A stretch of DNA of 32,000 nucleotides from an uncultured Candidatus Brocadia sp. (GCA_964490485.1 CAZBCT010000003.1:35280-67279); one strand, 5' to 3'; counted from the stretch's first letter, positions 152-30,479 are shown. Program-made: numbers and translations. Notes: generated by a model from the sequence alone, not told the origin.

Positions 152-2077
152 CTATACTTTCATTCCAATCTCTACACCCTCAGCGATGGCCTCAAGGGCG
201 GTACGGCCTTCTGCGGCATCACCAACAGTGTAAACCGTAGGAATAAAGGGTTGGATAGAGACAGCGAGTGCGCTGTTCGGTTGATGGAGGGTGGGAATGA
301 CAATGGTATCAAACCCATCGAGTTTTTGATCTGCTTCCCGCCGGCGATTGATAATGATATAATTATGTCCAACCTCAACAACTTTTGTGTTGACGTACAA
401 TTGAGCTCCCATCTTCTTAAGACGTTCACAAACATGATACCGGGGGTGTGCAACGAGTCCCAATCCAAGCACACGCCTCATCTCTATGAGGGTAATCTTT
501 TTTCCTCTGGAAGCGAGAAAGTCGGCAAGCTCGCAACCCTCAGGACCTCCTCCAACGATGGCAATGTTGTTTCCAAGAGAATCTGAATTTACAAATGCCT
601 GCTTAACGTCGATCGTACCGTTATTTTGTGCACCGCCGATCTCAATATGCACGTTCCTGGCGCCATGTGCGAGAACAACTACGTCAGGGGAAAATTGTTT
701 GATTGCTTCCGCTGTTGCCTCTGTGTTAAGCTGAATCAAAGCGTCAGTTTTTTTAACCTGAAGGATTAAATAATCGAGAAATTTTCCTAAAGATTCCTTC
801 TTCGGCGCCAGTGATGCATAGCAGAAACTTCCTCCCAGCCGTGATCCTTTTTCCCACAGGGTAACTTTATGCCCTCGGCCTGATAATACCTGCGCGGCTG
901 ATAATCCTGCCGGTCCACCCCCGACAATGAGTATTCTTTTTGGGTGTGTGGTTTTCGTCGTGCGGTGAATATTTTCTTTACCAATAGAGGGATTGACCGT
1001 ACAGACAAGCCTTTTATTAGAGATACTTTCGATACACCGGTTACAGCTTATGCAGGTTCTTATATCATCGGGTCTGCCGTCTTTCACCTTATTAGGGAAG
1101 TGCGGGTCGGCAATAAGGGTACGCCCCAACACAATAAGGTCTGCCTTGTTTTCCTGTAATATGCTTTCAGCCATAGCGGGATTTAAAATCCTCCCAACAG
1201 CTAATACGGGTATTTTTACCACAGATTTGATCCCCGCTGCGAGATGGACAAAACAGCCTTCTTCTAGATAATAACAGGGTATATTGAAAAACGCGGATGC
1301 GTAGTTGCATGCAGAAACGTGAAGAGCGCTTGTGCCAGCCCTTTCAAGTATTTTGGCTATCTCCCTGCTTTCTTCCAATTTCAGCCCCGTATCAGTATAT
1401 TCGTCTGCGCTGATACGACAAATGACCGGATAATCCCCTGAAGCACACCTACGTATACCTTCAACAATTTCCTGCGCAAATCGTGAACGACGGGCAGTGC
1501 TTCCCCCGTAATCGTCTGTGCGCGTATTAGATTCCGGGGAAAGAAATTGATTCGCCAGATATCCGTGCGCCATGTGAATTTCAACACCATCAAATCCTGC
1601 GCTTATGGCACGAACAGCGCCTTGAATAAATTTGTTGATTATGTCCCTGATTTCTTCAGCCGTTAATTCTCTGGGCATTTCTTTGGTTAAAGGGCTCGGA
1701 ATAGCAGACGGGGCTACCGGCTTCAAACCGGTAAAGTATGGCAATGCCTCTTTCCCTGCATGACTTAATTGAATAACAATTTTTCCGCCTGCGGCATGGA
1801 TGCAATCCGTGAGTTTTTTAAAGCCTGGAATATATTTGTCATCATGGATGCATAACATGCCGTCATTGACCCTGCCTGCAGGGTCGACGGCTGTATTTTC
1901 CAGGGTAATATACCCCACTCCTCCCACAGCACGCTCTTTGTAGTAAACAATAAGCTCCTCAGTCACAAAACCCTCTGTATCGCATAAATGCGTCTCCATA
2001 GGGGACATTACCATGCGATTCTTTACGCTCAGAGAGCCTAGCTTAAATGGACTGAAGAGTTTTGGAAAAGCATTCAT
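152..2077 (-). CDS. Old-yellow-enzyme-type FMN oxidoreductase fused to an FAD/NAD(P)-binding domain (2,4-dienoyl-CoA reductase FadH-like)
   Basis: 641-aa ORF. The N-terminus [19 protein letters not shown]...IQLSHAGK is a typical OYE TIM barrel. A Cys cluster ([10 protein letters not shown]) follows, then the dinucleotide-binding motif [14 protein letters not shown] and a second motif [12 protein letters not shown]. Confidence 0.85.
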
Positions 2078-9256: not shown

Positions 9257-9584
9257 AGCTCTATCTTTAAAAACCATCCGGGTCTGTATTATTTAACAAT
9301 AAAAGGGGACAGGATGCTTTTGGCATCATGCTGTTGATTGTGTGTTAACATCCTTTAATATATACAATACCATGCTGACAATGCGAAAATAAAGATAAAA
9401 ATGAATGGTTAAGAAACTCCTTGAGACTGATAACTCAAGGTCAGTCTTGAAAGTGACATTGGTTTTTTATGTCGGTGTAATGGTAATTCTATTTCACCCC
9501 TTCAGGCTTTTTTACCGTATAGTGGATTTTGTTTTTATTGCGTGTGAATGCCTTCAGGTACGTTGCACCTACAGAGAAAGGTGT

Positions 9585-9745
9585 TTTTCAAAAAGCTAAA
9601 GTATTACGTTTTTTGAAAATGTAGGGGCGAAGCATTTGCCGGCTTGTGTATGAGCGCATGTATACCAACGATAGCAAATGCTTCGCCCCTACACTGTGCG
9701 GTACACATCGCCATTAATTGGTTCTTTTCAAAAAACTAAATTGTT
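9585..9745. mobile_element. MITE copy A (partly decayed left end, extra solo terminal repeat)
   Basis: The inner 19-bp perfect inverted repeat GTAGGGGCGAAGCATTTGC (9621-9639 / 9674-9692) has a 34-nt loop. The right TIR is TTTTCAAAAAACTAAATTGTT (9725-9745). The left TIR is shortened (9609-9619). An additional TIR-like TTTTCAAAAAGCTAAA sits at 9585-9600. Confidence 0.65.
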
Positions 9746-9933: not shown

Positions 9934-11166
9934 TTAATCCATTCTGCTTATCACAAGACATGAATTATTTCCATCATAATCCATGGTATTTATTATGACG
10001 TTCCGGATTTCTTTTTTAAAGGGTCTTTCAAGGATAAGATTCAGATTAATCTCCGGGTCTTTGTTGCAGTGATTCATGATGTGAGGTATTTGGCCTGTGT
10101 TTATTGACATGATTGATGAAATGATTTGTGCTGCACCGGCGGTTCCGTACGATTCGCCGATGGTCGATTTTATTGCAGATACCGGAATACGAACATTCCC
10201 TGTGTCGAATAACGATTGGATAGCCTTTGCCTCAACCGCATCCTGCATCTTGCATCCGTTTGCATTAGCGCTGATAAAATCAAGGTCTTCCCTTTTTACT
10301 CCAGAGTCTTCCAGCGCTTCATGCATGGCCTTTTCGGCACGACGCACCCGTATATCCGCCGAATGGTCTTTACCGCCCACGAAGGTATTCCCAAGTCCCT
10401 TTACCTCCGCATAGATATGGGCGCCCCTGTCCAGGGCGTGCTGAAGTTCTTCCAGAATAACCACGCAACTGCCTTCTGCCATGACAAAACCGTTTCTCTC
10501 TTTATCGAAAGGCAGGCTCGCCTCTCTTGTACCATCAAGACCGGACAACAAACCGCGCAGGTAAAATATGAGATACAGATCAATGGATATCTGCTCGACA
10601 CCGCCTGTCACGATTACCTTTGCCATATCGCGCTGGATCATTTTGAATGCATCTCCTATGGCATCGGTGCTTGATGTGAAACCAGCAGAAATGGTGCGCG
10701 CAAGCCCCTTCATCTTAAAGATGACCGATACGTAATTGATGGAAGAGTTTAAAGCCACATCGTAACTGAGCATGGGCGACAATTCGGAGGGATTATTTCG
10801 TATGATTTCATAAAAGTAATCGGTGGTCTCGGAAAAATTTCCCAGCGATGAACCGATGACAATGCCCATTTTCTCCGACAGGGAACCATCCGTCGGGAGC
10901 CTTGCATCGTCAATGGCCATCTTGGAAGCAGACCCCAAAAATCGTGTGCCTTTGTTCAGATACTTTAGACCTTTACTACCAAGGTATATCTCGGGTTTAA
11001 GGTCTCTTACTTCCCCGCCGAGCTTGCATTTATACGGAGAAAGGTCAAGAGAGGCCATCGGCGCAATGCCAGATTTCCCGGCGATAAGATTATCCCAAAA
11101 AACCTCTTTTCCGCATCCAAGAGGGGATACGACACCTAAACCGGTAATAACGACTCGTTTTTTCAT
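9934..11166 (-). CDS. Beta-ketoacyl synthase paralogue lacking the Cys-His-His catalytic triad (chain-length-factor-like partner)
   Basis: The product has a KAS fold (MKKRVVITGLGVVSPLG...). Aligned to the adjacent KAS, Cys becomes Phe (ISAGFTSS vs LNACSSG). His becomes Asn (ISANANG vs INAHGTG), and the second His becomes Glu (STIGESYG vs SMIGHLMG). The likely start is ATG 11166. Confidence 0.85.
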   Translation of the reverse strand: MKKRVVITGLGVVSPLGCGKEVFWDNLIAGKSGIAPMASLDLSPYKCKLGGEVRDLKPEIYLGSKGLKYLNKGTRFLGSASKMAIDDARLPTDGSLSEKMGIVIGSSLGNFSETTDYFYEIIRNNPSELSPMLSYDVALNSSINYVSVIFKMKGLARTISAGFTSSTDAIGDAFKMIQRDMAKVIVTGGVEQISIDLYLIFYLRGLLSGLDGTREASLPFDKERNGFVMAEGSCVVILEELQHALDRGAHIYAEVKGLGNTFVGGKDHSADIRVRRAEKAMHEALEDSGVKREDLDFISANANGCKMQDAVEAKAIQSLFDTGNVRIPVSAIKSTIGESYGTAGAAQIISSIMSINTGQIPHIMNHCNKDPEINLNLILERPFKKEIRNVIINTMDYDGNNSCLVISRMD

Positions 11167-11251
11167 TGCACACCCGACAAAACACGGACAAACAAAGTTT
11201 ATCCGTACCACCCAAAAAACCGCTTAAATAAAATGAAAATTCCTCTTTGCT

Positions 11252-11363
11252 GGTTCAATCGTCCTCGATTGAACCGAAACATTTGGTATAATTCCGTCTC
11301 ACTGCACAAGTTCACGCTTTAGAGTAACATTCAAATATATGGTTCAATCTGCAAGATTGAACC
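11252..11363. repeat. Two related hairpins in the KS-KS intergenic region
   Basis: GGTTCAATCG-tcct-CGATTGAACC (11252-11275) and GGTTCAATCT-gca-AGATTGAACC (11341-11363). Both are perfect 10-bp stems sharing GGTTCAAT. Confidence 0.6.
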
Positions 11364-11407
11364 AGCCTTGAGGTTTGCTTCGTCCATTCGGCAAGCTCAG
11401 GACATGC

Positions 11408-12619
11408 TTAACCCATCCTACTAAATATTGTAGTTGCATTGTTTCCGCCGAAGGCAAAGGAATTATTTAATACGTGATCCACTTTTACCTCGCGCATCAC
11501 ATTGGGTACGTAATCAAGGTCGCATTCCGGATCGGGGGTTTCGTAATTAATCGTCGGAGGAATTACTCCATGTCTCAATATCAGACAGCAGACGACTGAT
11601 TCCACGGCACTCGCTGCGCCCATAAGATGACCAATCATCGATTTGGTGGAACTGCAGGGAATCTTATATGCGTCTTCGCTAAATACGCGTTTTATAGCGG
11701 TTGTCTCGGTCTTGTCATTGTGCGGAGTTCCTGTGCCATGTGCATTGATGTACCCAATTTCCTGGGGAGAAAGCCTTGCCATCTTCAACGCATCGCTCAT
11801 GCACTTCACCGCCCCGTCACCTTCGGGATGGGGTGCGGTCATATGAAATCCATCGCAGCTTAACCCATAACCTGCCAGCTCAGCAATAATCGGTGCCCCG
11901 CGTTTTTTGGCAAATTCGTATCGTTCCATGATCAGTATCCCTGCCCCTTCGCCTATCATGAGTCCCTGGCGGTTTTTGTCGAAGGGTTGACAACGCTCAG
12001 GAGCTAAGGCCTTGAGATTATGAAAGTGGGTAAATTCCGTCTGAGGGATCATGTCACCGCCACCGACCATTACCACGTCAACCTTATTATCCACCAGGAG
12101 GTCATATGCCCAGGAAATGGCGTGATTGCCCGACGAGCAGGCGTTCAGCGAGATCATGGTTGGGCCTTCAAAATCAAAGTATTTAGACAGGACATTGGCG
12201 ATCGAATTGGGTGGGTAAACGGCAGCAACGATTTTATCGAAACCGTTATCTTTTCTCGAGGTGTCTAACCGCAAGAGTCTCTCAAACGGTGTCAATTCGG
12301 CTGCCAAGGTTCCTATGGCAATACCAAATCGCTCCCGGTTGAATTTTTTATCACCTAACAAACCACTTTCTTGCAACGCTTCCCTGGCTGCATAGTAGAC
12401 ATATTTATGGATTGTGTTTTCTTTGATCTGATTTTCTAGTTCAAAGTCCCATTGAAAATTTTTTACTTCGCAGGAACGATGCACCTTATATTTTGAGGTG
12501 TCGAAGGACTTCATTTCGTTGGCGCCGTTCCTGCCCTGGATGAATGATTCCCAGCTTTGTTTAACGCCAATCCCAATAGGTGTGACCAATCCCAATCCTG
12601 TAATTACGACCTTTGACAT
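11408..12619 (-). CDS. Beta-ketoacyl-ACP synthase, FabF/FabB (KAS I/II) type, catalytically intact
   Basis: The Cys-His-His triad is present as NACSSG, YINAHGTGTPHND and SSTKSMIGHLMGAASA, with a C-terminal FAFGGNNATTIF. The likely start is ATG 12619; the ORF track begins at TTG 12628. Confidence 0.9.
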   Translation of the reverse strand: MSKVVITGLGLVTPIGIGVKQSWESFIQGRNGANEMKSFDTSKYKVHRSCEVKNFQWDFELENQIKENTIHKYVYYAAREALQESGLLGDKKFNRERFGIAIGTLAAELTPFERLLRLDTSRKDNGFDKIVAAVYPPNSIANVLSKYFDFEGPTMISLNACSSGNHAISWAYDLLVDNKVDVVMVGGGDMIPQTEFTHFHNLKALAPERCQPFDKNRQGLMIGEGAGILIMERYEFAKKRGAPIIAELAGYGLSCDGFHMTAPHPEGDGAVKCMSDALKMARLSPQEIGYINAHGTGTPHNDKTETTAIKRVFSEDAYKIPCSSTKSMIGHLMGAASAVESVVCCLILRHGVIPPTINYETPDPECDLDYVPNVMREVKVDHVLNNSFAFGGNNATTIFSRMG

Positions 12620-12731
12620 ATATTTCAATCTTTAAACAAGAAAGGTCAACTATTCACATTAATTAATCCAACGAATATGTTGACCTTACAAACAATGCTT
12701 AACCCTCCAAAGAAAGGAGGAATTTCCGCTG

Positions 12732-14213
12732 TTAAGACGATGTCTCAATCGGCGTCAATTGTACCTTTTTCCCTGATTTTTTCGATTGTTGATATCGTTT
12801 TAATGCCTCGTCATAGAATCCTGATGTCTGCAATTCTTTGAGATTTTGGATCAGGTGTTGGTAAACGGACTGCCAATCCAGATTGACCCTGAATGCAAAC
12901 ATGGCGGCATTCATGTTATCTTTCAGCACCTCTTTCGCATTTTGGAATCTCTGCCGCAATACCTCGGTGGCATAAATTCTGTCATACAGATATTGAAATC
13001 CATCGATAAGTTCCTGAAGGGACATGTTTTTCAGGACATAGGTGAGATGATGAGACGTGTAATACTTCCAATCCTCCGGAAAGTTTGTCCTGAAAAGCCT
13101 TCCTTCGCCGTTTAACCGGTGATACAGCGGCGTATTAATGAACGGACACAAAATACCGCAGGTCATGATGTCGACATGGGAATCCAGGACAAAATCGGCA
13201 ACCTGCTTAAAGGTATCGGGGGTATCGGCATCATTGCCAAAGACCATGGTCCCCCACACGGCAAGTCCGTGTTTGCGGATATTGGCTATCGCCTCAAAAT
13301 AATTTTCAATGGAGATGCGCAAATTTACGTTCTTGTTCATCGTCTTCAATGCCTCTTCATTGATGGATTCAATCCCAATGAGCATCCCGACGCACCCGCT
13401 TTTTTTCATATATTCAAGGGTTTCATCATCTTTATAGATATTGAGCGAGGTAAACCCGAACCAGTTCTGGTAAATACCCCTTTCCACCATACCCTTGAAA
13501 AGGTCCCGAACACGCTCATTAGACTTTTTGCTGTGTCCGTAAAAATTTTCATCTGTCAGGATCAAACCGCGATATTGACCCTTGATGGATTCGAATTCAT
13601 CAAGGACGTCTTCAATAGGTCTTTCACGATATTTCCTGCCCTGAAACTGAGGCACAGAGCAGAACTCACAGCTAAACGGGCATCCGGCGGTAGTTATAAT
13701 GCCTGAATACCGGTATTTATATTTATCCTTCAAATATTTTCTATCAGGCCGCAACCCCTGATACAACTCCATGGGCGTCAGGACGCCGTCGTATCTTTTC
13801 TGGAGACACCCTTTTTCAAAATCACCAACGATTTTTTCCCAGGTAGTAACAGCTTCCCTCGTAACGACGCAGTCCACATATTTTGCCGCCTCTTCCGGAT
13901 AACTCGTTGCGTGAATACCGCCCATGATTACCGGTATGCCCCGCTTCCGGCAGGCAGTAGCTATCTGATAAGCCCGGTGGGCCTGATAACTTACCGACGT
14001 GATACCGACCAGGTCGGCTCCACCAAAGGTAATATTTCCTGTATTTTCGTCAAGTGCAAGTTCCTGGGTTTCATCGATGATATCGACTTGCCAGTGTTTT
14101 GGAGTCAATACCTTCAGATAGCCGAGATTTACCGGCATTTGATTTAATACGGAGACATTCTCCTCGCCAACATTTCCAATCGGATGTGGATTGATTAATA
14201 CAAGTCTTTTCAT
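12732..14213 (-). CDS. B12-binding-domain radical SAM enzyme (class B type)
   Basis: 493 aa. The N-terminal cobalamin-binding-like Rossmann segment (LVLINPHP...DLVGITSVSYQ...PVIMGGIHAT) is followed by the CPFSCEFC radical SAM motif and a long C-terminal helical extension. Confidence 0.9.
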   Translation of the reverse strand: MKRLVLINPHPIGNVGEENVSVLNQMPVNLGYLKVLTPKHWQVDIIDETQELALDENTGNITFGGADLVGITSVSYQAHRAYQIATACRKRGIPVIMGGIHATSYPEEAAKYVDCVVTREAVTTWEKIVGDFEKGCLQKRYDGVLTPMELYQGLRPDRKYLKDKYKYRYSGIITTAGCPFSCEFCSVPQFQGRKYRERPIEDVLDEFESIKGQYRGLILTDENFYGHSKKSNERVRDLFKGMVERGIYQNWFGFTSLNIYKDDETLEYMKKSGCVGMLIGIESINEEALKTMNKNVNLRISIENYFEAIANIRKHGLAVWGTMVFGNDADTPDTFKQVADFVLDSHVDIMTCGILCPFINTPLYHRLNGEGRLFRTNFPEDWKYYTSHHLTYVLKNMSLQELIDGFQYLYDRIYATEVLRQRFQNAKEVLKDNMNAAMFAFRVNLDWQSVYQHLIQNLKELQTSGFYDEALKRYQQSKKSGKKVQLTPIETSS

Positions 14214-14596
14214 GAACCTTCCTCTTTTTTGGGCACCAATAATACCTGGGCAATGGCATAGTCCTGGCAGTGGGATAAGGATACAGAAATATTATCAATA
14301 TGTTTCTTATCTGCCATTTCTTTTACACTTCCATACAGATTCAAATAGGGCCTGCCCATTTCGTCATTTAAGAGTTCAATATCCGTCCATTTCATTTTAC
14401 CGACCCAGCCAGTCCCCAGCGCCTTGAACAGGGCCTCTTTTGAGGCGAAACGAGCTGCAAAATGCTGATATTTGTTCTTCCTTTGTTTGCAGTATTCCAC
14501 CTCTTTTTCTGTATAAATCCTTCGCAAGAAATCCTCATTGGCGGAGAACAATTTTTCAATCCGTTTTATTTCTATAATATCAATACCAACATACAT
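14210..14596 (-). CDS. acpS: Holo-ACP synthase (4'-phosphopantetheinyl transferase)
   Basis: 128 aa with MYVGIDIIEIKRIEK...FAARFASKEALFKALGTG, typical of AcpS. Its stop overlaps the radical SAM start by 4 nt (ATGA). Confidence 0.9.
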   Translation of the reverse strand: MYVGIDIIEIKRIEKLFSANEDFLRRIYTEKEVEYCKQRKNKYQHFAARFASKEALFKALGTGWVGKMKWTDIELLNDEMGRPYLNLYGSVKEMADKKHIDNISVSLSHCQDYAIAQVLLVPKKEEGS

Positions 14597-14671
14597 AAAT
14601 GATACCCAGTGTCTGGCAATTTCAGTTATTGTAACTACTTACATCATAAGTATCTATTTGGAGAAAAGAGC

Positions 14672-14700
14672 ATTTTACAGGGTTGCAAAATTAATGTCAA
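14672..14700 (-). promoter_or_regulatory. Sigma70-type promoter candidate for the acpS operon
   Basis: On the minus strand, TTGACA (14700-14695) is followed by a 17-nt spacer and TAAAAT (14677-14672). It lies about 75 nt upstream of the acpS ATG. Confidence 0.5.
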
Positions 14701-15217: not shown

Positions 15218-15996
15218 AAAGCCAAGCATCTTGTCGTAACTCTTCATCCGGCAGCAATCAGCCAAGCTTGCAAACTTCGCGATGAGGCAATCACTGCCGC
15301 AGGGCTTCGCAAGGCGCTATCGGTATTATTGGTGGCCGAGCCAGGTCTTGATGCGGAAAAGACAGCAGAGGTCCTCGGAACAAGCCGCCGAACAATTTTT
15401 CGCAAACGAGAGGAATTTCGCCATCAAGATGATGCATCGAGAAATTCTTGGGGTGGGGGTGGGCGTCGCCGTTTCTCTCTATCTATAGGGGAGGAACGGG
15501 AATTCCTTTCAGCATGGGAAGCAGCGGCAACAGCAGGTGGTGTTCTTTCTGTGCCTGCTGGGCGCCATCGCCCCACAGGCCAGTGGTTAGTCTTGCCCTG
15601 GTACGGGAGTTTAGGTATGAGTATGCAGCGGTAAGTCCGTGGGACGGAGAGATTGATCGTATGACAAGAGAAAAGATGAATACTGAAAGTATGAGTTGTT
15701 TTCTAAAACAGGTAAGTAAGGCACATCCGAATGAGTTTGATGTTATGATTGTTGATGGTGCGTCATCCCATAAAGGCAAAGAACGTAAAATTCCAAAAAA
15801 CATGGCGCTGGTGTTTTTGCCGTCATATCCTCCTGAATTGAGCCAGGCAGAGCAGATATGGAATATACTTCGGCGCGACTATTTTGCTAACAGGGTATTT
15901 GATTCTCTGGATGCAGCGACAGGGCAGGCAAAGCGGGGATTTACTATTATGGTGAAAAACAAAGAGGCAGTAAGAAATTTGACAAATTGGCATTGA
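15218..15996 (+). pseudogene. IS630-family transposase remnant (5'-truncated, internally deleted or frameshifted)
   Basis: One frame gives an HTH part (LVAEPGLDAEKTAEVLGTSRRTIFRKREEF...GGGGRRR) with no start codon. A second frame gives the DDE C-terminus (MIVDGASSHKGKE...FLPSYPPELSQAEQIWNILRRDYFANRVFDSLD). The middle of the catalytic domain is missing. Confidence 0.7.
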
Positions 15997-16048
15997 ATTG
16001 GCGACATCTTGATTGCATAATGGAATAAGATGCATTCAAATGAATACT

Positions 16049-16267
16049 AACAATCCAGTCGAAGCCTGCTATCCCAGCGACTTTTTTCTCGTCATTTTCC
16101 AGTGTCACCAAAGTGTCCATCCGTATGTCCTCAACTGCAGCCATACTATCAAACACTTTGTTCGCAAACCACTTCTCGCATATCTCATCCCAGAGATGTT
16201 CCACCGGATTGCATTGTGGGCTATAAGCGGGCAACCAAACCAACCGCATGTTTTGAGGGATTTTCAC
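16049..16267 (-). pseudogene. Second IS630-family transposase C-terminal fragment
   Basis: LVWLPAYSPQCNPVEHLWDEICEKWFANKVFDSMAAVE...GFDWIV is the C-terminal about 70 aa of an IS630-type DDE transposase. A stop lies immediately upstream. It sits tail to tail with the plus-strand remnant. Confidence 0.65.
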
Positions 16268-21001: not shown

Positions 21002-24000
21002 TCATCGTCGAACCGCTTCGTAATTCGTTCCGTCCATGTCAGTAATCATCATATGGTTACGATCTACAAATTCATACCACATGGTGGTAATTTCGCCCGA
21101 CTCATCGCACATCATGATTTGACCGCTGGAAGTATTCGATCCACCCTGTGTCCTATTCCTTGTCTGCTGAACAGCTACTTTTCCCCGGAGCGTTGAACCT
21201 TCGCTTTGGGATGCGATCGCGAAATTGGCGTTCGACTCGATGGTCAGGGTCTTCTTCCGAGGCAGGAATTTATTGTCAGGAGACATCTCCCAGACGCCAA
21301 CCAACTCCGGAACTACTTTTGCTTGAGATGCAAAATGCTGTAATACCACCTGCTGACGTTTACGGTGCTGCTGATTTTGAAGATCTGCATAAGTGCGTTG
21401 TTCCTGACTCATACCGGCGTACGGTTCCTGTTCCTGCACCTGCTGCTGTCTCTGAGAATGTGCCCGTGCAATGGCCATATTGAGCTGATTGAGATCGTTT
21501 CGGAGGTGTTCAGGAATCGTTCTCCCTATTTCGTAAAGGGCGCGGCTGGCGCCCTCCGTGTCACCTTTAGCTAAAAGGGACTGCGCCAGGTAAAATGATG
21601 CCTCAGAGGCTGGCGCTCCGGCTAATCCGCCAAAGTTCGTGTCGCCCTGCGCATTCCCTACCATAGGAATGCCGGCCATACGCTGCGGACCCAACCGGGC
21701 TGCATCCGAAAACTGCTGTATCGCTTCGTCCTGTTTGCCCATGGATGCAAGGAGCTTGCCGGCATTCAGGTGCGCTTCGGCTATTAACGTGGCTGCATTT
21801 ATCGGGGCAATCATCATGGCGCCTTTCTCGGGTTGCTGATCCGGCAGCATGGCGGTGAACATTTGCCAGGACTCCCAACCCAGGAGCATTCTCGGCTCAT
21901 ACCTGAGAGATGCAAGGTACTGATCAAGCCCCTCCTTCTGCTTTCCCGCCTGTTCCAGGAGATGCGCAAGATGGAAATAAGACTGGATGGCAAGCCCGAA
22001 ATCAAGGGGATCGCGAGTCATAGGCGTTCCACTCTTCACGAAAGGTTCATCGAGGAGAAGACGCGCTTCCTCCAGCACCAGTGCAACCCGGAAAGCGGCG
22101 ATTGCCTCTTTGGTCTTGCCTTCCTCTTCGTAAGTCACCCCAAGATAAGCGGGAATCCTGGCGTCAACCGGATCAAGCTGGTGGGCAGCCGCAAGCCTGC
22201 CCTTTGCTCCCTGCCAGGCGGTTTTGGTAATTTGGTCCCAGGCCAGGCGGAGCATGGGTGCTGCGGTGGTGTGGATCAGCTTACGGGCAATAGCCTGCTG
22301 TTCCTCTGCCTTCTCTTTTTGTCCGGTCTTTGCATAAAAGTCAACCAGGGTATCCTGAGCTTCCAGAGAATCGGGATACCCGTTGACAGCATCCACAAGC
22401 GTTTGCCGGGCAGCGTCATAATCGCCTGACCACACATGGAGGTCGGCCTGGATAAGATATCTGTCTGCCGTACCCCTGGCAGCCTTGACAGCAGCCTCCA
22501 TGGCGGAGCGCGCCTTCTCGCGTAACCCGGTGGCCGCAGCGTCGAGTTGATTAGCCCGCTCCAGATCGACAGGGGAGGGCGGATAACACGTTGTCGTCGT
22601 AACTTCATAGATACCGTCGTATCGCGTTTCCGTGGAGGTAGAGCTTGTGCACTCCGTCTGCCTGAGGCTCGATGCCTCAGCAGAGTACTGATTTGCCCTC
22701 ATGGAACGAAATTTCGCATAGAGACGCAGCGCATCAGGATCATTCCCTGACAACTCCAATGCCTGATCCGCAAGTTGTTCAGCCTCGTCGTAACGCTTGA
22801 GCATACTCAATGCAATGGCCTTCTGAATCATCGCCTTTACGTGTTTCGGATTAAGCGCCAAAGCGCGGTCGAGGATTTCTACCGCCCGAAGCCGTTCTTT
22901 TTCCTTCGACTCCTGCCAGCGGTAGTAGAGCAACCCCCGCCTGGGCTCGACGGATTCCCCCCGATTGTCAGATTCGGCAAGCATATATTCGGCAAGGTTG
23001 ACCAGATTGTCTGGATTCTTGGGACGGGCACGCACGGCATCTTCGAGGATGCGGAGTTTATCCTGATACGTCTCATCATAGCGCAGTCGTTGCACTCCCG
23101 TAGCCTTGTGAACCTTGACGGCAAGGCTCACGAGCTGATCCAAAGGTGCATCAGCCTGCGCCGCCTGCTCCAGGGCAGTCAAAAGGTGATCAGGGGAACC
23201 ATCGACCTGTTGTTTTTTGAGTTCATTCTCAATGGAGGATCGGGTTTTTTTTGTGGCTGAAGCATCCAGTTTAGCGGCAATTTCCAGATCAGCGCGGGTT
23301 CTTCTGGCATCCCCCCATCGTGCAGCCGCCATGGCCCGGCCAAGGTAGGCAGCGGCAAAGTCAGTGCGGCCCGTGAGGGCAATGGTAAATTCACGACGGG
23401 CGGTAGCCGGACGGCCAAGAGACAGCCAGCTATCCGCAGAAATATACAGCATGTCCGGATCAGACGGGTAAGCTGCACGGACGAACTCAATTTCCCGCAG
23501 GGCGGCATCGAATTGCCTCGATTCGTGCAGCTGTTTCGCGCGGGCGAAATGAGCGGGCGCCAGATCCGGACGTTTTAAAAAGCGTTTCGCAAACCAACGC
23601 CCCGCTTTTGCCATGGCCTCGCGAACGGGGCCTGTTTTCGTGTTGCCTCCGCTCTGCCGCGCTTTTCCATAAGAACTTGCCATCTCATAATAGACAAATG
23701 ATGCATAGGCCGTTGGGTAGTCATCCCGCCCCTGAATCATGTGTCCGGGAATTGAAACAAAGCTGTATTCTTGCCCCTGCGGCGAATCCGCAGATACTCC
23801 TTCTCTGCCCTGAAGGCTCCGGGGACCCGAAATACCATGTCCCGGAGTTGCGATGCCGCTCATTGCTTCTGCAACATACGTCCAGAGTTCAGCCTCGCGT
23901 CCCTTTCCGCCAAGACGCTGGAATCGTTCAAAATCTTTCTTTGCCGGTTGAAATTGTTCGGCAAGAGTCTCAGCAACTCCCCGCGCAAGCACATAATTTG

Positions 24001-24202
24001 GATCATCGCCACTGGCATCAAGGGCTCGGGAGAACGCTGCAACGGCTTCAGGAAATTGTCCCTGGGTTAATGCGTCCAGCCCTTCAAGGTAGGCCATAAG
24101 CCCTGGAGTATTCCCGCTCGAAGGTGGAGCAGCCTGGATCTTTAACGGTAATACGCCAAAGCAAATACATACAAGCATGATTTTTACAAAGGTGTGCGGC
24201 AT
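21002..24202 (-). CDS. Large secreted tetratricopeptide-repeat (TPR) protein
   Basis: 1066 aa. The signal-peptide-like N-terminus is MPHTFVKIMLVCICFGVLPLKIQAAP. Many A/L/Y-rich 34-residue-type repeats follow (for example YDEAEQLADQALELSGNDPDAL), and there is a non-repeat C-terminal domain of about 150 aa. Confidence 0.8.
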   Translation of the reverse strand: MPHTFVKIMLVCICFGVLPLKIQAAPPSSGNTPGLMAYLEGLDALTQGQFPEAVAAFSRALDASGDDPNYVLARGVAETLAEQFQPAKKDFERFQRLGGKGREAELWTYVAEAMSGIATPGHGISGPRSLQGREGVSADSPQGQEYSFVSIPGHMIQGRDDYPTAYASFVYYEMASSYGKARQSGGNTKTGPVREAMAKAGRWFAKRFLKRPDLAPAHFARAKQLHESRQFDAALREIEFVRAAYPSDPDMLYISADSWLSLGRPATARREFTIALTGRTDFAAAYLGRAMAAARWGDARRTRADLEIAAKLDASATKKTRSSIENELKKQQVDGSPDHLLTALEQAAQADAPLDQLVSLAVKVHKATGVQRLRYDETYQDKLRILEDAVRARPKNPDNLVNLAEYMLAESDNRGESVEPRRGLLYYRWQESKEKERLRAVEILDRALALNPKHVKAMIQKAIALSMLKRYDEAEQLADQALELSGNDPDALRLYAKFRSMRANQYSAEASSLRQTECTSSTSTETRYDGIYEVTTTTCYPPSPVDLERANQLDAAATGLREKARSAMEAAVKAARGTADRYLIQADLHVWSGDYDAARQTLVDAVNGYPDSLEAQDTLVDFYAKTGQKEKAEEQQAIARKLIHTTAAPMLRLAWDQITKTAWQGAKGRLAAAHQLDPVDARIPAYLGVTYEEEGKTKEAIAAFRVALVLEEARLLLDEPFVKSGTPMTRDPLDFGLAIQSYFHLAHLLEQAGKQKEGLDQYLASLRYEPRMLLGWESWQMFTAMLPDQQPEKGAMMIAPINAATLIAEAHLNAGKLLASMGKQDEAIQQFSDAARLGPQRMAGIPMVGNAQGDTNFGGLAGAPASEASFYLAQSLLAKGDTEGASRALYEIGRTIPEHLRNDLNQLNMAIARAHSQRQQQVQEQEPYAGMSQEQRTYADLQNQQHRKRQQVVLQHFASQAKVVPELVGVWEMSPDNKFLPRKKTLTIESNANFAIASQSEGSTLRGKVAVQQTRNRTQGGSNTSSGQIMMCDESGEITTMWYEFVDRNHMMITDMDGTNYEAVRR

Positions 24203-25266: not shown

Positions 25267-25830
25267 ACGGAGTATTGCCATGTTGCGAAGCTGGAAAAGT
25301 TACGAAGAAAGAGGATGAGAAGCTGGAATCTCTCCATCCTCCCATCCTCATATCTTCCCAAACAGACGATTCGTGCGATCTCGTCAGATGTCCAGATAAT
25401 CTGTTCTGGACAGTAACTATTCAGTGTATATTCGCTCATAATTGCTATGAGCGGACAAAATCAGGCAATTTCGCCGTGAAATAGCATCTTTAATGCCTGT
25501 CTCAAATTTACCCCTTGTTTTCGACAAGTTGAGAGGTAGCTGCGGATGCGACAGAAAATCCTGGTTCCGTCCAATGAACGCTAACAGCCCTGCATGTACC
25601 GTTAATCTCTTCCCGTTCATCTCCGTCTCGATTTTTGGTTGTTTTCTTTCCTTGATTTGTGCTATATTCTTCATTGAAAAGGCGAACCTCCTTTTAGGTG
25701 TTTTTATTCTCAAAATACCATCAAATCCCTCGGAGATTCGACCATTTCTGGCCTAATCCTACAACAAGGCAGGAGTTAGGTAGAATTCTTTCAACAATAC
25801 TTTTTTGATATAAGATATGAGATATTGTTT

Positions 25831-26286
25831 ATGGATAGAAGAAAAAAGAGGATAATCAAGGAGATTGGTGATAATGCACAACCCTGGTATACAGCGGGTC
25901 TGAGGTTCGAATGCCAGCGATGCGGCAGGTGTTGCCGCGGCGAACCTGGTGTGGTATGGGTTAACAGAAAGGAGATTAAAGAGATATCGTCGTTTCTAGG
26001 CATTACAGAGAACGCATTTGCCAAAAGCTATTTGAGGAGTGTTAACGACCGGTTCAGTCTCCTGGAATACGGGAACGGTGATTGTATTATGTATGATAAT
26101 GGTTGTAAGATTTACGATGTTAGACCCTGCCAGTGCAGGTCCTTTCCGTTCTGGACATCAAATTTAGAAAACAGGTCTGAGTGGGAAAAATTGAAGAAGA
26201 CGTGTCCTGGTGTAGATAAAGGAAAGTTGCGTACCCTCAAGGATATAGAAGACAATGTAAGGATATATGAAAGGCGTTTTGGCTAA
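25831..26286 (+). CDS. YkgJ-family (CxxCxxCC) cysteine-cluster protein
   Basis: It contains the ECQRCGRCCRGEPG motif and downstream Cys residues (CIMYDNGCKIYDVRPCQCRSFPFW). The likely start is ATG 25831; the ORF track begins at TTG 25825. Confidence 0.75.
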   Translation: MDRRKKRIIKEIGDNAQPWYTAGLRFECQRCGRCCRGEPGVVWVNRKEIKEISSFLGITENAFAKSYLRSVNDRFSLLEYGNGDCIMYDNGCKIYDVRPCQCRSFPFWTSNLENRSEWEKLKKTCPGVDKGKLRTLKDIEDNVRIYERRFG

Positions 26287-26289
26287 GGT

Positions 26290-26736
26290 ATGATAACGAA
26301 AGGACCTTTGACACAGAATCTTTATTCGGACTTGAGAACAATCTATCAACATTTGGAAAAAGAGTTAATGTTGCTAAATCCAGGTTGTAATAAGTGTGGG
26401 ACGTGTTGTAATTTTACCGCATTTGATCATGTCCTTTATGCAAGCAATATCGAGGTCGATTTTATTGTGCAAAACGTGAAAGTGCCGGACTTCAACGTTT
26501 CGGACAATGTGTGTCCTTTTCTTAAGGATAATCAGTGCAGTATCAGGGATTTCCGAACGCTTGGATGCCGGGTTTTTTATTGCGACCCTCAGTACAAAGA
26601 AGTTTTGCCTACCCTCTACGAGAAGTGCTATCGATTGATCAAAGATTTGAGCAAAAAATATAACACTCAATGGGAATACCTTCCTTTTCTTGGTCGATTG
26701 GCTGAATCCAAAAAGAAAACAAATATCGGCTGTTGA
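26290..26736 (+). CDS. Second YkgJ-family cysteine-cluster protein
   Basis: It contains the CNKCGTCC motif and CPFLKDNQCSIRDFRTLGCRVFYC. It starts 3 nt after the previous stop. Confidence 0.75.
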   Translation: MITKGPLTQNLYSDLRTIYQHLEKELMLLNPGCNKCGTCCNFTAFDHVLYASNIEVDFIVQNVKVPDFNVSDNVCPFLKDNQCSIRDFRTLGCRVFYCDPQYKEVLPTLYEKCYRLIKDLSKKYNTQWEYLPFLGRLAESKKKTNIGC

Positions 26737-27141: not shown

Positions 27142-29418
27142 GTGAAAACGGCTAAACAAATGCACGGAGAAGATATTGATACTTATAAGGTTGCCCTGGT
27201 GGGAAATCCAAATGTCGGGAAAAGCGTGATATTTGGTTTACTAACCGGGAAATACGTGACCGTGTCGAACTATCCGGGGACAACCGTAGAGGTCTCCCGT
27301 GGGGTATGCAATGGCTTGAATGGAGGTGTTGAAGTCGTAGATACACCGGGGGCAAATAGTCTTATTCCTCTTTCTGAAGATGAGAGTGTCACAAGGGATA
27401 TGCTTTTGGAGGAGTGCAAGAAGCACGTTGTCCAGGTGATGGATGCAAAGAATCTTCGTCGTGGCTTGTTGATTACCACGCAACTTGCAGAGATGGGGCT
27501 GCCTGTGGTGATAACGTTGAATATGTGGGATGAGCTTTTAGACAGGGGAATGAATATTGATGTAAATGTATTACAGGAAAAGTTGAGTCTTCCTATCATA
27601 AAAACTATTGCTACCCACAGGGTGGGAGTAAGCGCACTATTTAGTTCCATACCGAATGCAAAAGTCCCCAATCTTTACGTTGATTACGGGAACTTCATTG
27701 AAGAGGGCATTTCTAAGATAGAGAAAATATTGCAGGGCAACACGACCGTGAATGAAAGGGCGCTGGCTATAATGCTTTTGTCGGGCGATAGCGCTCTTGA
27801 AGAGAAATTGCGAAAGCAACTTTCTGATCATGCGCTTGATGAAGTGCAAAGCATTCGGAATAATATCCAGGCGCATTTTGGCAGTCCGTTGAGTTATGTA
27901 ATCAATATCAAGCGGGCAAATTATGTGGATGCGTTGGTTGAGGCAGTAACATCCAATCTCAAAAAAGAAAAGGAAACTCATCCGGTTTTGAGGAAAATGT
28001 TTTTTTATTTTCTTATGCCGGCAGTTTTTTTTTTCATGGGTTATAAGCTCATGGCTTTATTAATGTATCTCATTTCATCCGGTAGTGTTTTTGCTTCTCT
28101 TTTACCGTTTGTTGTTGGCGGTATCTCATCGATATGGTTTTCGCTGCACCTCTATGTGAAAGAATACAAGGCGAAGAGTACCATTGCAGGGATATTGGGG
28201 CGTATTACCATGCATCCGGTGGCAGCATTTCCGCTCCTGGTTATTATTTTATGGATTGTTTATAAGCTGGTGGGAGAGTTTGGCGCGGGAACATGTGTAG
28301 ATTTCTTTGAAGAAAAGGTCTTTGGCCGATCATTGATACCTTCAGGTGGCTTTGATTTATGCTTATATATACCCTTTATTCAGAAGTCATATGTTATTAC
28401 CCATGTGAATTTTCAAGGGTTCAATTATTATTTCGGACTGCTTGCACAAAAATTGGTGGATAAAGATAATATTATCTTTGAGTTATTTTTGAATGAACAA
28501 TCCGGGCTAATACGAGTGGGGCTCACCTATGCAATTGCCATTGTTTTCCCCATCGTTGGGTTTTTCTTTCTGGCATTTGGCATTATGGAAGATAGTGGAT
28601 ATCTTCCACGTCTTGCTGTTATGGTGGATAAGATATTTAAACGCATAGGGCTAAACGGGAAAGCCGTTCTTCCGATGGTGCTGGGTCTGGGTTGTGACAC
28701 CATGGCAACCCTGACAACCCGCATCCTGAATACAAAAAAGGAGAGGATTATTGCTACGTTGTTATTGGCATTGGCCATCCCGTGTTCTGCCCAGTTAGGG
28801 GTTATTTCGAGTGTACTAGGCAGGGTTTCGGGGATATATTTTGCCATTTACGTTTTTGTTATTTGTACCCAGCTTCTCCTTGTTGGTTATTTATCGTCTA
28901 AGGTCTTGCCTGGGGCTCCTTCGGATTTTTTGATGGAGATACCTCCGTTTCGGATGCCTAAACTATCGAATATTTTTGTCAAGACATTTTACCGGGTACA
29001 TTGGTTCTTAAAGGAAGCGGTGCCCTTATTTATGCTGGGTACCCTTGCATTATTCGTGGCAACGAAGGTAGGGCTACTCTCTATTGTGGAGAGAATGGGT
29101 GCGCCAATTACCCGGAATTTTTTAGGACTCCCCGAAGAAACAACGCATGGGTTTATCCTGGGATTCTTAAGAAGGGATTACGGCGCTGTGAGCATCTTTA
29201 AGACATTGGAAGAAAAAGGAGGAAGCGCAGGAATTGACCCCAAACAATTGTTAGTCTCGCTTGTCGTGATTACGTTGTTTATACCGTGCCTTGCCAATTT
29301 TTTAGTGATGATCAAAGAGCAAGGGGCTAAAAACGCATTCCTCATGTTTGCCTTTATATTTCCATATTCGGTGCTTGTTGGCGGTATTTTGCGGATCATT
29401 TTACAGCAGTTTTCATGA
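27142..29418 (+). CDS. feoB: Ferrous iron transporter FeoB
   Basis: The N-terminal G-domain (VALVGNPNVGKS, NYPGTTVE, VDTPG) is followed by a polytopic membrane domain. The start is GTG 27142 or ATG 27160. Confidence 0.9.
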   Translation: MKTAKQMHGEDIDTYKVALVGNPNVGKSVIFGLLTGKYVTVSNYPGTTVEVSRGVCNGLNGGVEVVDTPGANSLIPLSEDESVTRDMLLEECKKHVVQVMDAKNLRRGLLITTQLAEMGLPVVITLNMWDELLDRGMNIDVNVLQEKLSLPIIKTIATHRVGVSALFSSIPNAKVPNLYVDYGNFIEEGISKIEKILQGNTTVNERALAIMLLSGDSALEEKLRKQLSDHALDEVQSIRNNIQAHFGSPLSYVINIKRANYVDALVEAVTSNLKKEKETHPVLRKMFFYFLMPAVFFFMGYKLMALLMYLISSGSVFASLLPFVVGGISSIWFSLHLYVKEYKAKSTIAGILGRITMHPVAAFPLLVIILWIVYKLVGEFGAGTCVDFFEEKVFGRSLIPSGGFDLCLYIPFIQKSYVITHVNFQGFNYYFGLLAQKLVDKDNIIFELFLNEQSGLIRVGLTYAIAIVFPIVGFFFLAFGIMEDSGYLPRLAVMVDKIFKRIGLNGKAVLPMVLGLGCDTMATLTTRILNTKKERIIATLLLALAIPCSAQLGVISSVLGRVSGIYFAIYVFVICTQLLLVGYLSSKVLPGAPSDFLMEIPPFRMPKLSNIFVKTFYRVHWFLKEAVPLFMLGTLALFVATKVGLLSIVERMGAPITRNFLGLPEETTHGFILGFLRRDYGAVSIFKTLEEKGGSAGIDPKQLLVSLVVITLFIPCLANFLVMIKEQGAKNAFLMFAFIFPYSVLVGGILRIILQQFS

Positions 29419-29826
29419 ATGCAAATACGAGGGAAGATCATATCCATTTCATGCAATGTTGCAGAGGTGTGCATCATCAGAGAAAACACCGCATGTGAAA
29501 GTTGTTCCGCCTGTCCAAAAAAGATGGGCATACGGGACATTATAACAGTGGCGGCGATCAATGGAATTCGGGTTGGACAGGAGGTTGTCTTACGTGAAAC
29601 CAGGAATTGGTTTACAAAAAATAAAATTGTGATTGCGCTGCTTGCCTTTGTGTTTGGAATCATATTGACCGAGTCAATATCGACAATAGTATCATTCGGT
29701 ACGTATCGTACAGAGATTGACTTGCTTGGCGGTGGTTTGATAACAATCATTATGGTGATGGTATTAAGGATCAAGCGTCCACGATATCTTTTTAAGATAG
29801 AGTTGACAGAAGTGGGAAAGGATTAA
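29419..29826 (+). CDS. RseC/MucC-family (SoxR-reducing-system-like) small membrane protein
   Basis: 135 aa. An N-terminal beta segment with CESCSAC is followed by two hydrophobic helices. The ATG directly abuts the feoB stop. Confidence 0.6.
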   Translation: MQIRGKIISISCNVAEVCIIRENTACESCSACPKKMGIRDIITVAAINGIRVGQEVVLRETRNWFTKNKIVIALLAFVFGIILTESISTIVSFGTYRTEIDLLGGGLITIIMVMVLRIKRPRYLFKIELTEVGKD

Positions 29827-29828
29827 GT

Positions 29829-30479
29829 ATGACTGAGCCTAGTCAAGAGGAAATTCTGGAATTAATATGGACAATAGATGAAGAGAAGGGGGTGGTCGAA
29901 AGAGAGTCATTAATAAAAAAGATACGCCTCCCCTCAGCTGAACAGGTATTAAACACCCTCATTCACGAGGAGTATGTGACAATATCAGATAGCAAAGTAG
30001 CGTTAACCAAAAAAGGCTTGGCAGGCGCGCGATTAGTCATTAGAAGGCACCGACTGGCTGAAAGGTTGTTGAATGATGTACTCGATGTAAAAGAAGATGC
30101 CATGGATTCCAGCGCATGTAAATTTGAGCATATCCTGGATGAGGAAGTCACGGCCAGTATATGTACTTTGTTAGGGCATCCGGTAACCTGTCCTCATGGA
30201 AAGGCTATCCCGCCGGGAGAGTGTTGTGAGAAGGCAAATAAGGAGATAAGGCCTGTGGTGATGCCGTTATCAGATTTAAAATCCGGGGATGGGGCGAAGA
30301 TAGCATATATTGTAACAAAATATCATGGCAGGCTCGATAGGCTCTCATCTATGGGTTTATTGCCCGGCGTTCAAATCCACCTGCATCAGCGTCAACCGAC
30401 CTATGTCATCCAGATGGGTGAGACACAAATCGCCCTAGATACTGCTATTGCGCGGGATATTTATGTGCGTCTCTTGTAG
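29829..30479 (+). CDS. DtxR/MntR-family metal-dependent regulator with C-terminal FeoA (SH3-like) domain
   Basis: A winged-helix N-terminus is followed by RRHRLAERLLNDVLD and a metal-site region (CKFEHILDEEV, CPHG). The FeoA-like tail is DLKSGDGAKIAYIV...LGLLPGVQIHL. Confidence 0.85.
   Translation: MTEPSQEEILELIWTIDEEKGVVERESLIKKIRLPSAEQVLNTLIHEEYVTISDSKVALTKKGLAGARLVIRRHRLAERLLNDVLDVKEDAMDSSACKFEHILDEEVTASICTLLGHPVTCPHGKAIPPGECCEKANKEIRPVVMPLSDLKSGDGAKIAYIVTKYHGRLDRLSSMGLLPGVQIHLHQRQPTYVIQMGETQIALDTAIARDIYVRLL

Follow-up and report, generated by a model that had tools for sequence, protein, structure and literature searches.

The Brocadia copy of a candidate ladderane gene cluster, its sister relation to Cluster I and fused relatives outside anammox bacteria

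The biosynthesis of ladderane lipids has been an open problem for about twenty years, and the enzymes that form the rings are still unknown according to a review of August 2026 (PMC13459092); a preprint of May 2026 (bioRxiv 10.64898/2026.05.19.726425) likewise treats the pathway as unresolved. Two described gene clusters are closest to the locus reported here. The first, nominated by Rattray et al. 2009 (Biol Direct 4:8, PMC2649909), comprises kuste2802 (acpS), kuste2803 (a B12 radical S-adenosylmethionine enzyme, rSAM), kuste2804 (FabF) and kuste2805 (a non-canonical ketosynthase, KS); it was called a complete cluster and expressed in Escherichia coli by Javidpour et al. 2016 (PLoS One 11:e0151087, PMC4790861), and a 2022 review of cobalamin radical SAM enzymes considers that Kuste2803 may catalyse the formation of cyclobutane (PMC9204698). 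The second, Cluster I (kuste3603-3608), encodes an acyl carrier protein (ACP), FabZ, a KS, a catalytically dead KS, a phytoene-desaturase-like protein and a B12 radical SAM enzyme, and its KS pair was characterised by Granatino et al. 2026 (bioRxiv 10.64898/2026.05.19.726425). The two ketosynthase subunits, amxFabF2 (kuste3605) and amxFabFmut (kuste3606), are inactive singly and co-purify; together they decarboxylate malonyl-amxACP with the appearance of acetoacetyl-ACP, and they prefer C6-C8 probes. In the crystallised heterodimer (PDB 9S5H/9S5I) Phe135 and Val139 of amxFabFmut line the tunnel near substrate C8, where mutation shifts the chain-length preference; kuste2804 and kuste2805 are not mentioned in that preprint. 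Here we describe an operon at positions 9,934-14,700 of a 32,000-nucleotide stretch from an uncultured Candidatus Brocadia sp. (GCA_964490485.1 CAZBCT010000003.1:35280-67279; this whole stretch is referred to as the window). The operon is the Brocadia copy of the known candidate cluster, published since 2009, and thus no new object; what is new are the data on its conservation and selection, its sister relation to Cluster I, its gate residues, a third rSAM paralogue and superclusters in non-anammox genomes. Its features are as follows:

14672-14700, minus strand: sigma-70-type promoter TTGACA-17-TAAAAT, which precedes the start codon of acpS by about 75-105 nt
14210-14596, minus strand: acpS, holo-ACP synthase (AcpS-type 4'-phosphopantetheinyl transferase), 128 aa, orthologue of kuste2802
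12732-14213, minus strand: class-B-type radical SAM enzyme with B12-binding domain (rSAM), 493 aa, orthologue of kuste2803
11408-12619, minus strand: KS1, active beta-ketoacyl-ACP synthase (Cys-His-His), 403 aa, orthologue of kuste2804 and paralogue of amxFabF2
11242-11373, no strand: nested palindromic repeat element in the KS1-KS2 spacer, with inverted repeats and a terminator-like hairpin at 11364-11340
9934-11166, minus strand: KS2, catalytically dead KS paralogue (Phe/Asn/Glu), 410 aa, orthologue of kuste2805 and paralogue of amxFabFmut

The initial annotation had pointed to the clusters of FabF paralogues with radical SAM enzymes nominated by Rattray and colleagues. The correspondence with one of these, kuste2802-2805, extends from gene content and gene order to single residues of the dead KS. 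At the equivalent E. coli FabF positions the window KS2 has F-N-N-C-K-E-Q, that is, all the Kuste2805 residues given in Table 2 of Rattray et al. (Phe163/Asn298/Asn300/Cys302/Lys328/Glu333/Gln342; PMC2649909). For K. stuttgartiensis the comparison rests on the published gene list and residue table and on the Kuenenia-genus loci L028 and L031, in which the rSAM is 83-84% identical to that of the window; the differences are of species level, the window adding a 241-nt spacer with a palindrome and IS630-type fragments upstream. An anammox source, left undecided by the initial annotation, follows from KS2, since it is 100% identical to a Candidatus Brocadia sp. protein from a metagenome-assembled genome (MAG) and its closest relatives are anammox proteins (the best 120 homologues listed share 76-100% identity, and those named come from Brocadiales/Planctomycetota MAGs, Brocadia and Jettenia among them); the rSAM is 95-97% identical to its counterparts in Brocadia loci.

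With the rSAM as query, a search through GTDB genomes, one for each species, yielded 80 loci; exact-sequence look-ups gave no match for the rSAM protein and only 1.5-kb contigs for P0001, adding nothing on gene context. The four-gene order acpS-rSAM-KS-dead KS, on one strand, is found in more than 40 anammox loci and in all anammox lineages for which the sequence is long enough, namely Brocadia, Jettenia, Kuenenia, Loosdrechtia, Wunengus, Scalindua, Subterrananammoxibius and a Brocadiales MAG, so that the synteny proposed as a check is borne out; across anammox genera the rSAM is 71-97% identical. The acpS gene leads the operon in nearly all anammox loci, and in the Anammoxibacter locus no acpS open reading frame was detected upstream of the rSAM. 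A contig labelled Thermodesulfobacteriota (L038, CAXMPV010000029.1; 40% GC) carries a Scalindua-type acpS-rSAM-KS1 operon with an rSAM that is 77% identical, and is probably a mis-binned Scalindua contig.

Cluster I emerges as the nearest characterised relative of the window operon, subunit for subunit. In the PDB, KS1 scores highest with chain B of 9s5h, which is amxFabF2 (420 bits, next hit 311; 47% identity), and KS2 with chain C of the same entry, which is amxFabFmut (296 bits, next hit 248; 38% identity). In trees (neighbour-joining only, 100-200 bootstraps) the dead KSs form one clade (bootstrap 100) and their active partners another (100 and 95 in two trees), each dividing into one branch for Cluster I and one for the window type, and the rSAM tree has the same shape. 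A second rSAM of Scalindua, 51-53% identical to the window rSAM, lies within an ACP-FabZ-KS-dead KS-amine-oxidase-rSAM string, which is the layout of Cluster I. Both modules thus hold an active KS, a triad-less KS and a B12-type rSAM (paralogue identities 47%, 38% and about 52%), and their dead KSs have Lys335, His340Glu and Glu349Gln in common; Cluster I adds ACP, FabZ and the phytoene-desaturase-like protein and has no acpS, whereas the window operon has one, and its dead KS carries Val or Thr at the Cys position where KS2 has Phe. Heterodimer formation and activity have been demonstrated experimentally for the Cluster I pair. The simplest history suggested by these comparisons is a single origin of the KS/dead-KS/rSAM trio, followed by duplication of all three genes together. 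Scalindua contigs carry both the window-type operon and Cluster I, about 0.5 to about 80 kb apart (L056 and L076 on JAANXD010000001.1; L035 and L059 on JAIQZU010000039.1; L041 and L063; L046 and L070), much closer than seen for Brocadia.

The two ketosynthases of the window differ sharply in their catalytic residues. In an alignment with E. coli FabF, Cys163, His303 and His340 are all present in KS1, in agreement with its first description as a canonical ketosynthase, and it scores 412 bits against a cut-off of 387 for NF005589 (FabF subfamily); its orthologues invariably show C-H-T-T-K-H-E-F at eight diagnostic FabF positions. KS2, just 27% identical to KS1, has Phe, Asn and Glu at the same three positions, as was read originally from a direct comparison of the two neighbours, and retains Lys335; its matches to the FabF models of NCBIfam are strong and all under their cut-offs. 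Its anammox orthologues follow the pattern F-N-N-x-K-E-Q-[Y/L], with Asn303 in all but two, and its non-anammox orthologues keep Phe (Trp in L084), Glu and Gln. Two dead KSs of Brocadiaceae (L030:10968-12203 and L052:2733-3968) keep His at 303 (pattern F-H-N-C).

The absence of all three catalytic residues, together with the 241-nt spacer and its terminator-like hairpin before KS2 in the window, would fit an explanation in which KS2 is a decaying duplicate and its grouping with acpS incidental, the locus then amounting to a housekeeping acpS plus a redundant FabF. Decay of KS2, raised as a caveat when the operon was first annotated, is nevertheless not supported: relative to the window, the ratio of non-synonymous to synonymous substitution rates (dN/dS, Nei-Gojobori) is 0.047-0.092 for KS2 over 12 comparisons, with 0.025-0.099 for KS1, 0.020-0.037 for the rSAM and 0.041-0.087 for acpS, and strong purifying selection of this kind excludes the pseudogene reading. 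Furthermore, the replacement residues (Phe, Lys335, Glu and Gln) are kept in all anammox orthologues, the KS2 reading frame is unbroken in nearly all complete loci, and the homologous dead subunit of the Cluster I pair is needed for activity. We therefore regard decay as effectively refuted by the selection analysis, and give it next to no probability.

An active KS encoded beside a homologue that lacks the catalytic Cys is the KS plus chain-length-factor architecture that the initial annotation had recognised in the operon. We consider it probable that KS1 and KS2 form a heterodimer, because they are homologous to a crystallised pair and their genes abut or overlap in most other anammox genomes; the mirrored trees and the subunit-for-subunit match to the chains of 9S5H argue in the same direction. 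Within such a heterodimer, the wall contributed by the dead subunit would differ from that of Cluster I: in the alignment, all Cluster I sequences have F/T/V at positions 135/138/139 of this subunit and all anammox sequences of the window type have S/V/A, and the tunnel residues that come from the active subunit are identical in the two types. Because S/V/A replace F/T/V at the gate positions, a wider or longer pocket is predicted, and we give about even chances to the window pair taking acyl chains of greater length or bulk than the Cluster I pair does. The predicted second KS/chain-length-factor-like heterodimer, with gate residues unlike those of the crystallised pair, is in itself a lead for work on the pathway.

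Relatives of the window module and of Cluster I outside anammox bacteria are rare but real, and in three loci the two modules are fused into one supercluster, to which a partial module can be added (GC 50-69% over the four loci):

L074:2317-16859, one strand: supercluster on a 1.8-Mb contig with 69% GC, from a MAG labelled 'uncultured delta proteobacterium'
L084:3954-18974, co-directional: supercluster on a 506-kb contig with 65% GC (GCA_037446155.1)
L086:2119-14797, co-directional: supercluster with the full string, including the desaturase-like gene
L051:7466-13800: partial module in a Blastocatellia-labelled MAG, with KS, dead KS (Phe), rSAM and rSAM

The order within the superclusters is ACP, FabZ, KS, dead KS, (phytoene-desaturase-like gene), rSAM, rSAM, rSAM, KS, dead KS, an enoyl-CoA-hydratase-family (ECH) gene and a short-chain dehydrogenase/reductase (SDR) gene, so that ECH and SDR stand 3' of the window-type pair. 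In L074 the first part consists of amxACP-like and amxFabZ-like genes, a KS, a dead KS with Glu at the Cys position and a phytoene-desaturase-like gene, and the second part of three tandem rSAMs, a KS, a dead KS with Phe, the ECH-family gene, the SDR and a fourth rSAM; L084 has a string of the same type minus the desaturase-like gene, followed by a second ACP, FabH, an ACPS of its own and another KS. In the neighbour-joining trees each of these genes groups next to its anammox counterparts, the tandem rSAMs next to three different clades (the window type, the Cluster I type and a third type), and a protein search with the L074 rSAM ranked about eleven 90%-identity clusters of non-anammox relatives before the anammox proteins.

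The fusion of both modules, head to tail, in L074, L084 and L086 links the window operon functionally to Cluster I, and quite probably the two serve a shared pathway. It also bears on the description of Cluster I as exclusive to ladderane producers (bioRxiv 10.64898/2026.05.19.726425), which is not strictly correct since true orthologues of both clusters sit in non-anammox genomes. The 'ladderane' clusters that antiSMASH reports for non-anammox bacteria (PMC11968836) are a different matter: they include a ketosynthase of the FabF type (3-oxoacyl-ACP synthase II) and show no orthology to the clusters treated here. No report of the fused superclusters was found in the searchable literature, subscription journals not being covered. 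As regards a wide distribution in non-anammox taxa with an assigned product, which had been named at the outset as a finding that would speak against a role in ladderane synthesis, the related modules are instead rare and without an assigned product.

A more far-reaching hypothesis, which we advance tentatively and hold to be on the improbable side, is that the window trio, the Cluster I trio and the third rSAM are dispersed parts of one ancestral pathway that is intact in the non-anammox superclusters. On this hypothesis the window-type pair would elongate ring-bearing or long intermediates beyond the reach of the C6-C8-limited Cluster I pair, and the three rSAMs would build or rearrange the rings. 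If it is true, ladderane-like cyclised lipids would be made outside anammox bacteria, in hosts that are maybe easier to grow or to source genes from. The superclusters also provide a practical lead, as they offer other organisms (those behind GCA_037446155.1 with contig JBBIJE010000001.1, MFD00822.bin.1.250 with CAWFFN010000005.1, and SRR13254584), or better-behaved high-GC genes, for lipidomics and expression.

The rSAM itself combines an N-terminal B12-binding domain (PF02310, 36.3 bits against a cut-off of 32.1) with a PF04055 barrel (E 2.7e-20) and DUF4070, and its CxxxCxxC motif (C178/C182/C185) is invariant in a 32-sequence alignment, in keeping with the class-B-type label given by the initial annotation. 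None of the named NCBIfam families examined (HpnJ, BchE, PhpK, HpnR, TIGR04072) provides a model that reaches its cut-off with this protein or with the nearest representatives. For TIGR04072 ('lipid biosynthesis B12-binding/radical SAM protein', rSAM_ladder_B12) the window rSAM scores 82.8 bits against a cut-off of 360, and its nearer relative P0124 likewise just about 83 bits; by these scores the window rSAM belongs to a different sub-family. In the tree it sits in a separate clade (bootstrap 100) of three sub-families, all of which are linked to KS/dead-KS pairs. An AlphaFold2 model built from the 32-sequence alignment (predicted local distance difference test 89.8, predicted template-modelling score 0.88) was compared by Foldseek with the PDB, and matched AprD4, MgmA, TsrM, CysS and TokK, then the MiaB/RimO group (probability 1.0, template-modelling score up to 0.68, 13-18% identity). 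With the methylases TsrM, CysS, TokK and MgmA, and with the non-methylating BchE, HpnJ and OxsB, the rSAM shares the N-terminal B12-type Rossmann domain, and it has in common with these class B enzymes the CxxxCxxC barrel and a helical C-terminal domain at 13-18% identity; judged from the model, the architecture is that of class B, and the reaction type cannot be read from the structural matches.

Anammox bacteria contain abundant mid-chain methyl-branched fatty acids. The main rival to a role in ladderane synthesis is that the operon makes, or helps to make, a different specialised fatty acid, for example one of these, and no ladderane rings; the rSAM would then be a cobalamin-dependent enzyme that methylates an unactivated carbon, and the KS pair would elongate the branched intermediate. 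Most characterised class-B rSAMs are methyltransferases, and the matches MgmA, TsrM, CysS and TokK are methylases; moreover, the fused clusters occur in Blastocatellia- and 'delta proteobacterium'-labelled genomes, without reported ladderanes. At 13-18% identity, however, the structural matches leave the reaction type unconstrained, non-methylating class-B enzymes exist in BchE, HpnJ and OxsB (PMC9204698), and three rSAM paralogues with two KS pairs seem excessive for a single methylation. We consider this alternative unlikely, if worth keeping in view.

The third rSAM type is found in Brocadiales as a stand-alone gene (L087:8001-9443, L088:3080-4516, L053:9992-11425 and L057:6512-7957). It is a further candidate for the pathway, because it lies between the other two rSAMs in the non-anammox superclusters. 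Two proteins about 50% identical to the L074 query rSAM (P0360 and P0347) were considered as the Cluster I rSAM of Brocadiaceae and turned out to be of this stand-alone type instead. The gene adjoins a DUF1858/ScdA_N gene in L087 and L088, and genes of the futalosine pathway (menaquinone) lie beside it in L087 and L053.

Since a KS with an inactive KS beside it is the hallmark of type II polyketide synthase (PKS) and aryl-polyene systems, a cluster of that kind, making a pigment or protective polyene unrelated to the core membrane lipids, also has to be weighed. The type II KS-alpha/KS-beta pairs (actinorhodin 1TQY; ishigamide Iga11/Iga12, 6KXD) likewise consist of an adjacent active KS and Cys-less homologue, the inactive subunit shaping the tunnel; the ishigamide ketosynthase (6kxe) is the nearest structural homologue of amxFabF2 (bioRxiv 10.64898/2026.05.19.726425), and the FabZ-like proteins of the non-anammox superclusters match ApeP-like and ApeI-like Pfam families. 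In contrast to the decarboxylating Gln of the type II KS-beta (chain-length factor), however, the Cys position is occupied by Phe in all anammox KS2 orthologues and by Phe or Trp in the non-anammox ones, a distinction already drawn for the window KS2 in its first description, and the chain-length-factor-like subunit of Cluster I is also without Gln (Val or Thr). Neither the window nor the superclusters contain genes for a cyclase or an aromatase, or genes specific to aryl polyenes, and both KS1 and KS2 score far higher on FabF models than on PKS models; among PDB sequences, KS2 reaches 155 bits with 1tqy_B against 248 bits with Bacillus subtilis FabF. The presence of the operon in all anammox lineages, under strong purifying selection and with the sole Kuenenia acpS in first place, fits a core function, and we hold a polyketide or aryl-polyene product to be very unlikely.

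That leading acpS gene gives a single-domain protein of the expected length (128 aa; PF01648, E 5.7e-20 in Pfam; TIGR00516, 104.2 bits against a cut-off of 59.8). The initial annotation had called the transferase dedicated to the operon, and on this point it is probably mistaken: kuste2802 is the sole acpS of K. stuttgartiensis, without paralogues (Table 1 of Rattray et al., PMC2649909), and the window acpS is probably a housekeeping enzyme. The operon was further described as having no gene for ACP, ketoreductase (KR), dehydratase (DH) or enoyl reductase (ER). This stands for the operon and for the window as a whole, where tblastn with ACP, FabZ, ECH and SDR of E. coli and Scalindua, together with Pfam scans of the neighbours, found none of the four functions, but it does not carry over to other lineages, as KS2 of Scalindua is followed by flavoprotein, ECH and SDR genes. 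In L035:14073-17788 a 675-aa flavoprotein with old yellow enzyme (OYE) and Pyr_redox_2 domains, an architecture like that of 2,4-dienoyl-CoA reductase (OYE/FadH-type), overlaps the KS2 stop codon and is succeeded by an ECH-family gene and an SDR, an arrangement seen also in L022, L023, L033-L050, L076 and L077. The flavoprotein without the other two lies directly 3' of KS2 in Jettenia, Subterrananammoxibius and some Brocadiaceae, and all three are missing directly after KS2 in the window. A 641-aa OYE and Pyr_redox_2 flavoprotein at 152-2077 (minus strand), 8 kb downstream of KS2, was considered as a displaced orthologue and rejected: it is a different paralogue, 34-43% identical (about 36% for most loci) to the flavoprotein that follows KS2.

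Building on the directly observed gene content, orthology, conservation, purifying selection, subunit-for-subunit paralogy and module fusion elsewhere, we lean towards the view that anammox bacteria have a specialised fatty-acid pathway that depends on ACP, and that the operon is one of its modules; this is the pathway widely suspected of producing ladderanes; whether ladderanes are in fact the product appears to us evenly poised. In such a pathway AcpS, probably the only AcpS-type transferase of the genome, would turn apo-ACPs (the anammox-specific ACP included) that are encoded elsewhere in the genome into their holo form. KS1 and KS2 would associate in the manner of amxFabF2/amxFabFmut, KS1 performing the decarboxylative Claisen condensation of malonyl-ACP with acyl-ACP and KS2, without chemistry of its own, providing one wall of the acyl tunnel, in which a Ser/Val/Ala gate in place of Phe135/Thr138/Val139 may admit longer or bulkier chains than the C6-C8 chains of the Cluster I pair. 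The cobalamin-type rSAM might then use radical chemistry on the chain carried by ACP, to form a C-C bond, to rearrange the chain or to methylate it, and the module would act together with Cluster I, of which it appears to be the duplicated sister. Duplication history and gene fusion tie the operon to Cluster I in this scheme, and the third rSAM paralogue joins the candidates.

Several points weigh against this view. No experiment ties any of these genes to ladderanes, and when kuste2802-2805 were expressed in E. coli, the proteins were for the most part insoluble and no new fatty acid was seen (PMC4790861). A self-sufficient pathway would need the ACP, KR, DH and ER that the window does not have, and the fused clusters are found in bacteria not known to make ladderanes, which fits a non-ladderane product equally well. 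The physical pairing of KS1 with KS2 is a prediction; counts of net charge over residues 110-140 and 196-206 (the helix-loop-helix interface) do not separate the subunits, even in the crystallised pair, so that the published electrostatic asymmetry was not reproduced and the counts have no bearing on the window pair. Some internal nodes of the trees are weak, the KS1-type clade having bootstraps of 64 and 42 in two trees. Finally, the rSAM has no characterised close relative (best PDB sequence identity 17%, no NCBIfam model passed). Its best structural match, AprD4, has a B12-type domain but does not use cobalamin, and for that reason the use of cobalamin by the rSAM is inferred from the domain only.

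In its fine structure the operon is loosely packed. The acpS and rSAM genes overlap by 4 nt (ATGA, read directly in the sequence, as first annotated), followed by gaps of 112 nt between rSAM and KS1 and 241 nt between KS1 and KS2. The likely start codon of KS1 is the ATG at 12619 (the mechanical open reading frame begins at TTG 12628) and that of KS2 the ATG at 11166 (GTG 11211). Of the sigma-70-like sites in the region, the promoter proposed at 14700-14672 matches best (11/12), the number of promoter-like sites overall being not above chance there; a site of the form TTGACA/TTGACT-17-TA[A/C/G]AAT precedes acpS by about 100 nt in the loci of Brocadia, Jettenia, Loosdrechtia and Kuenenia, and by about 209 nt in those of Scalindua. 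Although synonymous sites are saturated in these comparisons, this conservation across anammox genera supports the promoter as real. Rfam and tRNA scans of the window detected no structured RNA, and no riboswitch in the leader.

The 241-nt spacer between KS1 and KS2 is a local insertion of a small palindromic repeat. Two hairpins in 11242-11373 share the stem GGTTCAATC/GATTGAACC (chance expectation 0), the spacer RNA folds with z = -4.0, and the same stem motif recurs between the genes of this operon in several other Brocadiaceae (L010:13515-13627, L027:4810, L052:970-1080 and L053:11523); the element is missing in relatives with abutting KS1 and KS2. A second nested palindrome lies downstream of KS2 (window 9580-9745), with perfect 20-nt arms (9620-9639/9674-9693) that are flanked by another inverted pair, and one of its arm sequences recurs in L007 and at the ends of L001 and L002. 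Just upstream of the operon promoter region, at 15329-16267, there are fragments of IS630-type (DDE_3) transposases in opposing orientations, and the flanks of the operon vary between Brocadia species around a constant four-gene core. Further away in the window, a gene on the minus strand (21002-24202) for a 1066-aa tetratricopeptide-repeat protein has 53-56% GC against about 44% for the whole window, and may have been acquired from elsewhere; an iron group at 27142-30479 comprises FeoB, an RseC/MucC-like protein and a DtxR-type repressor fused to FeoA, and two CxxCxxCC-domain proteins are encoded at 25825-26736.

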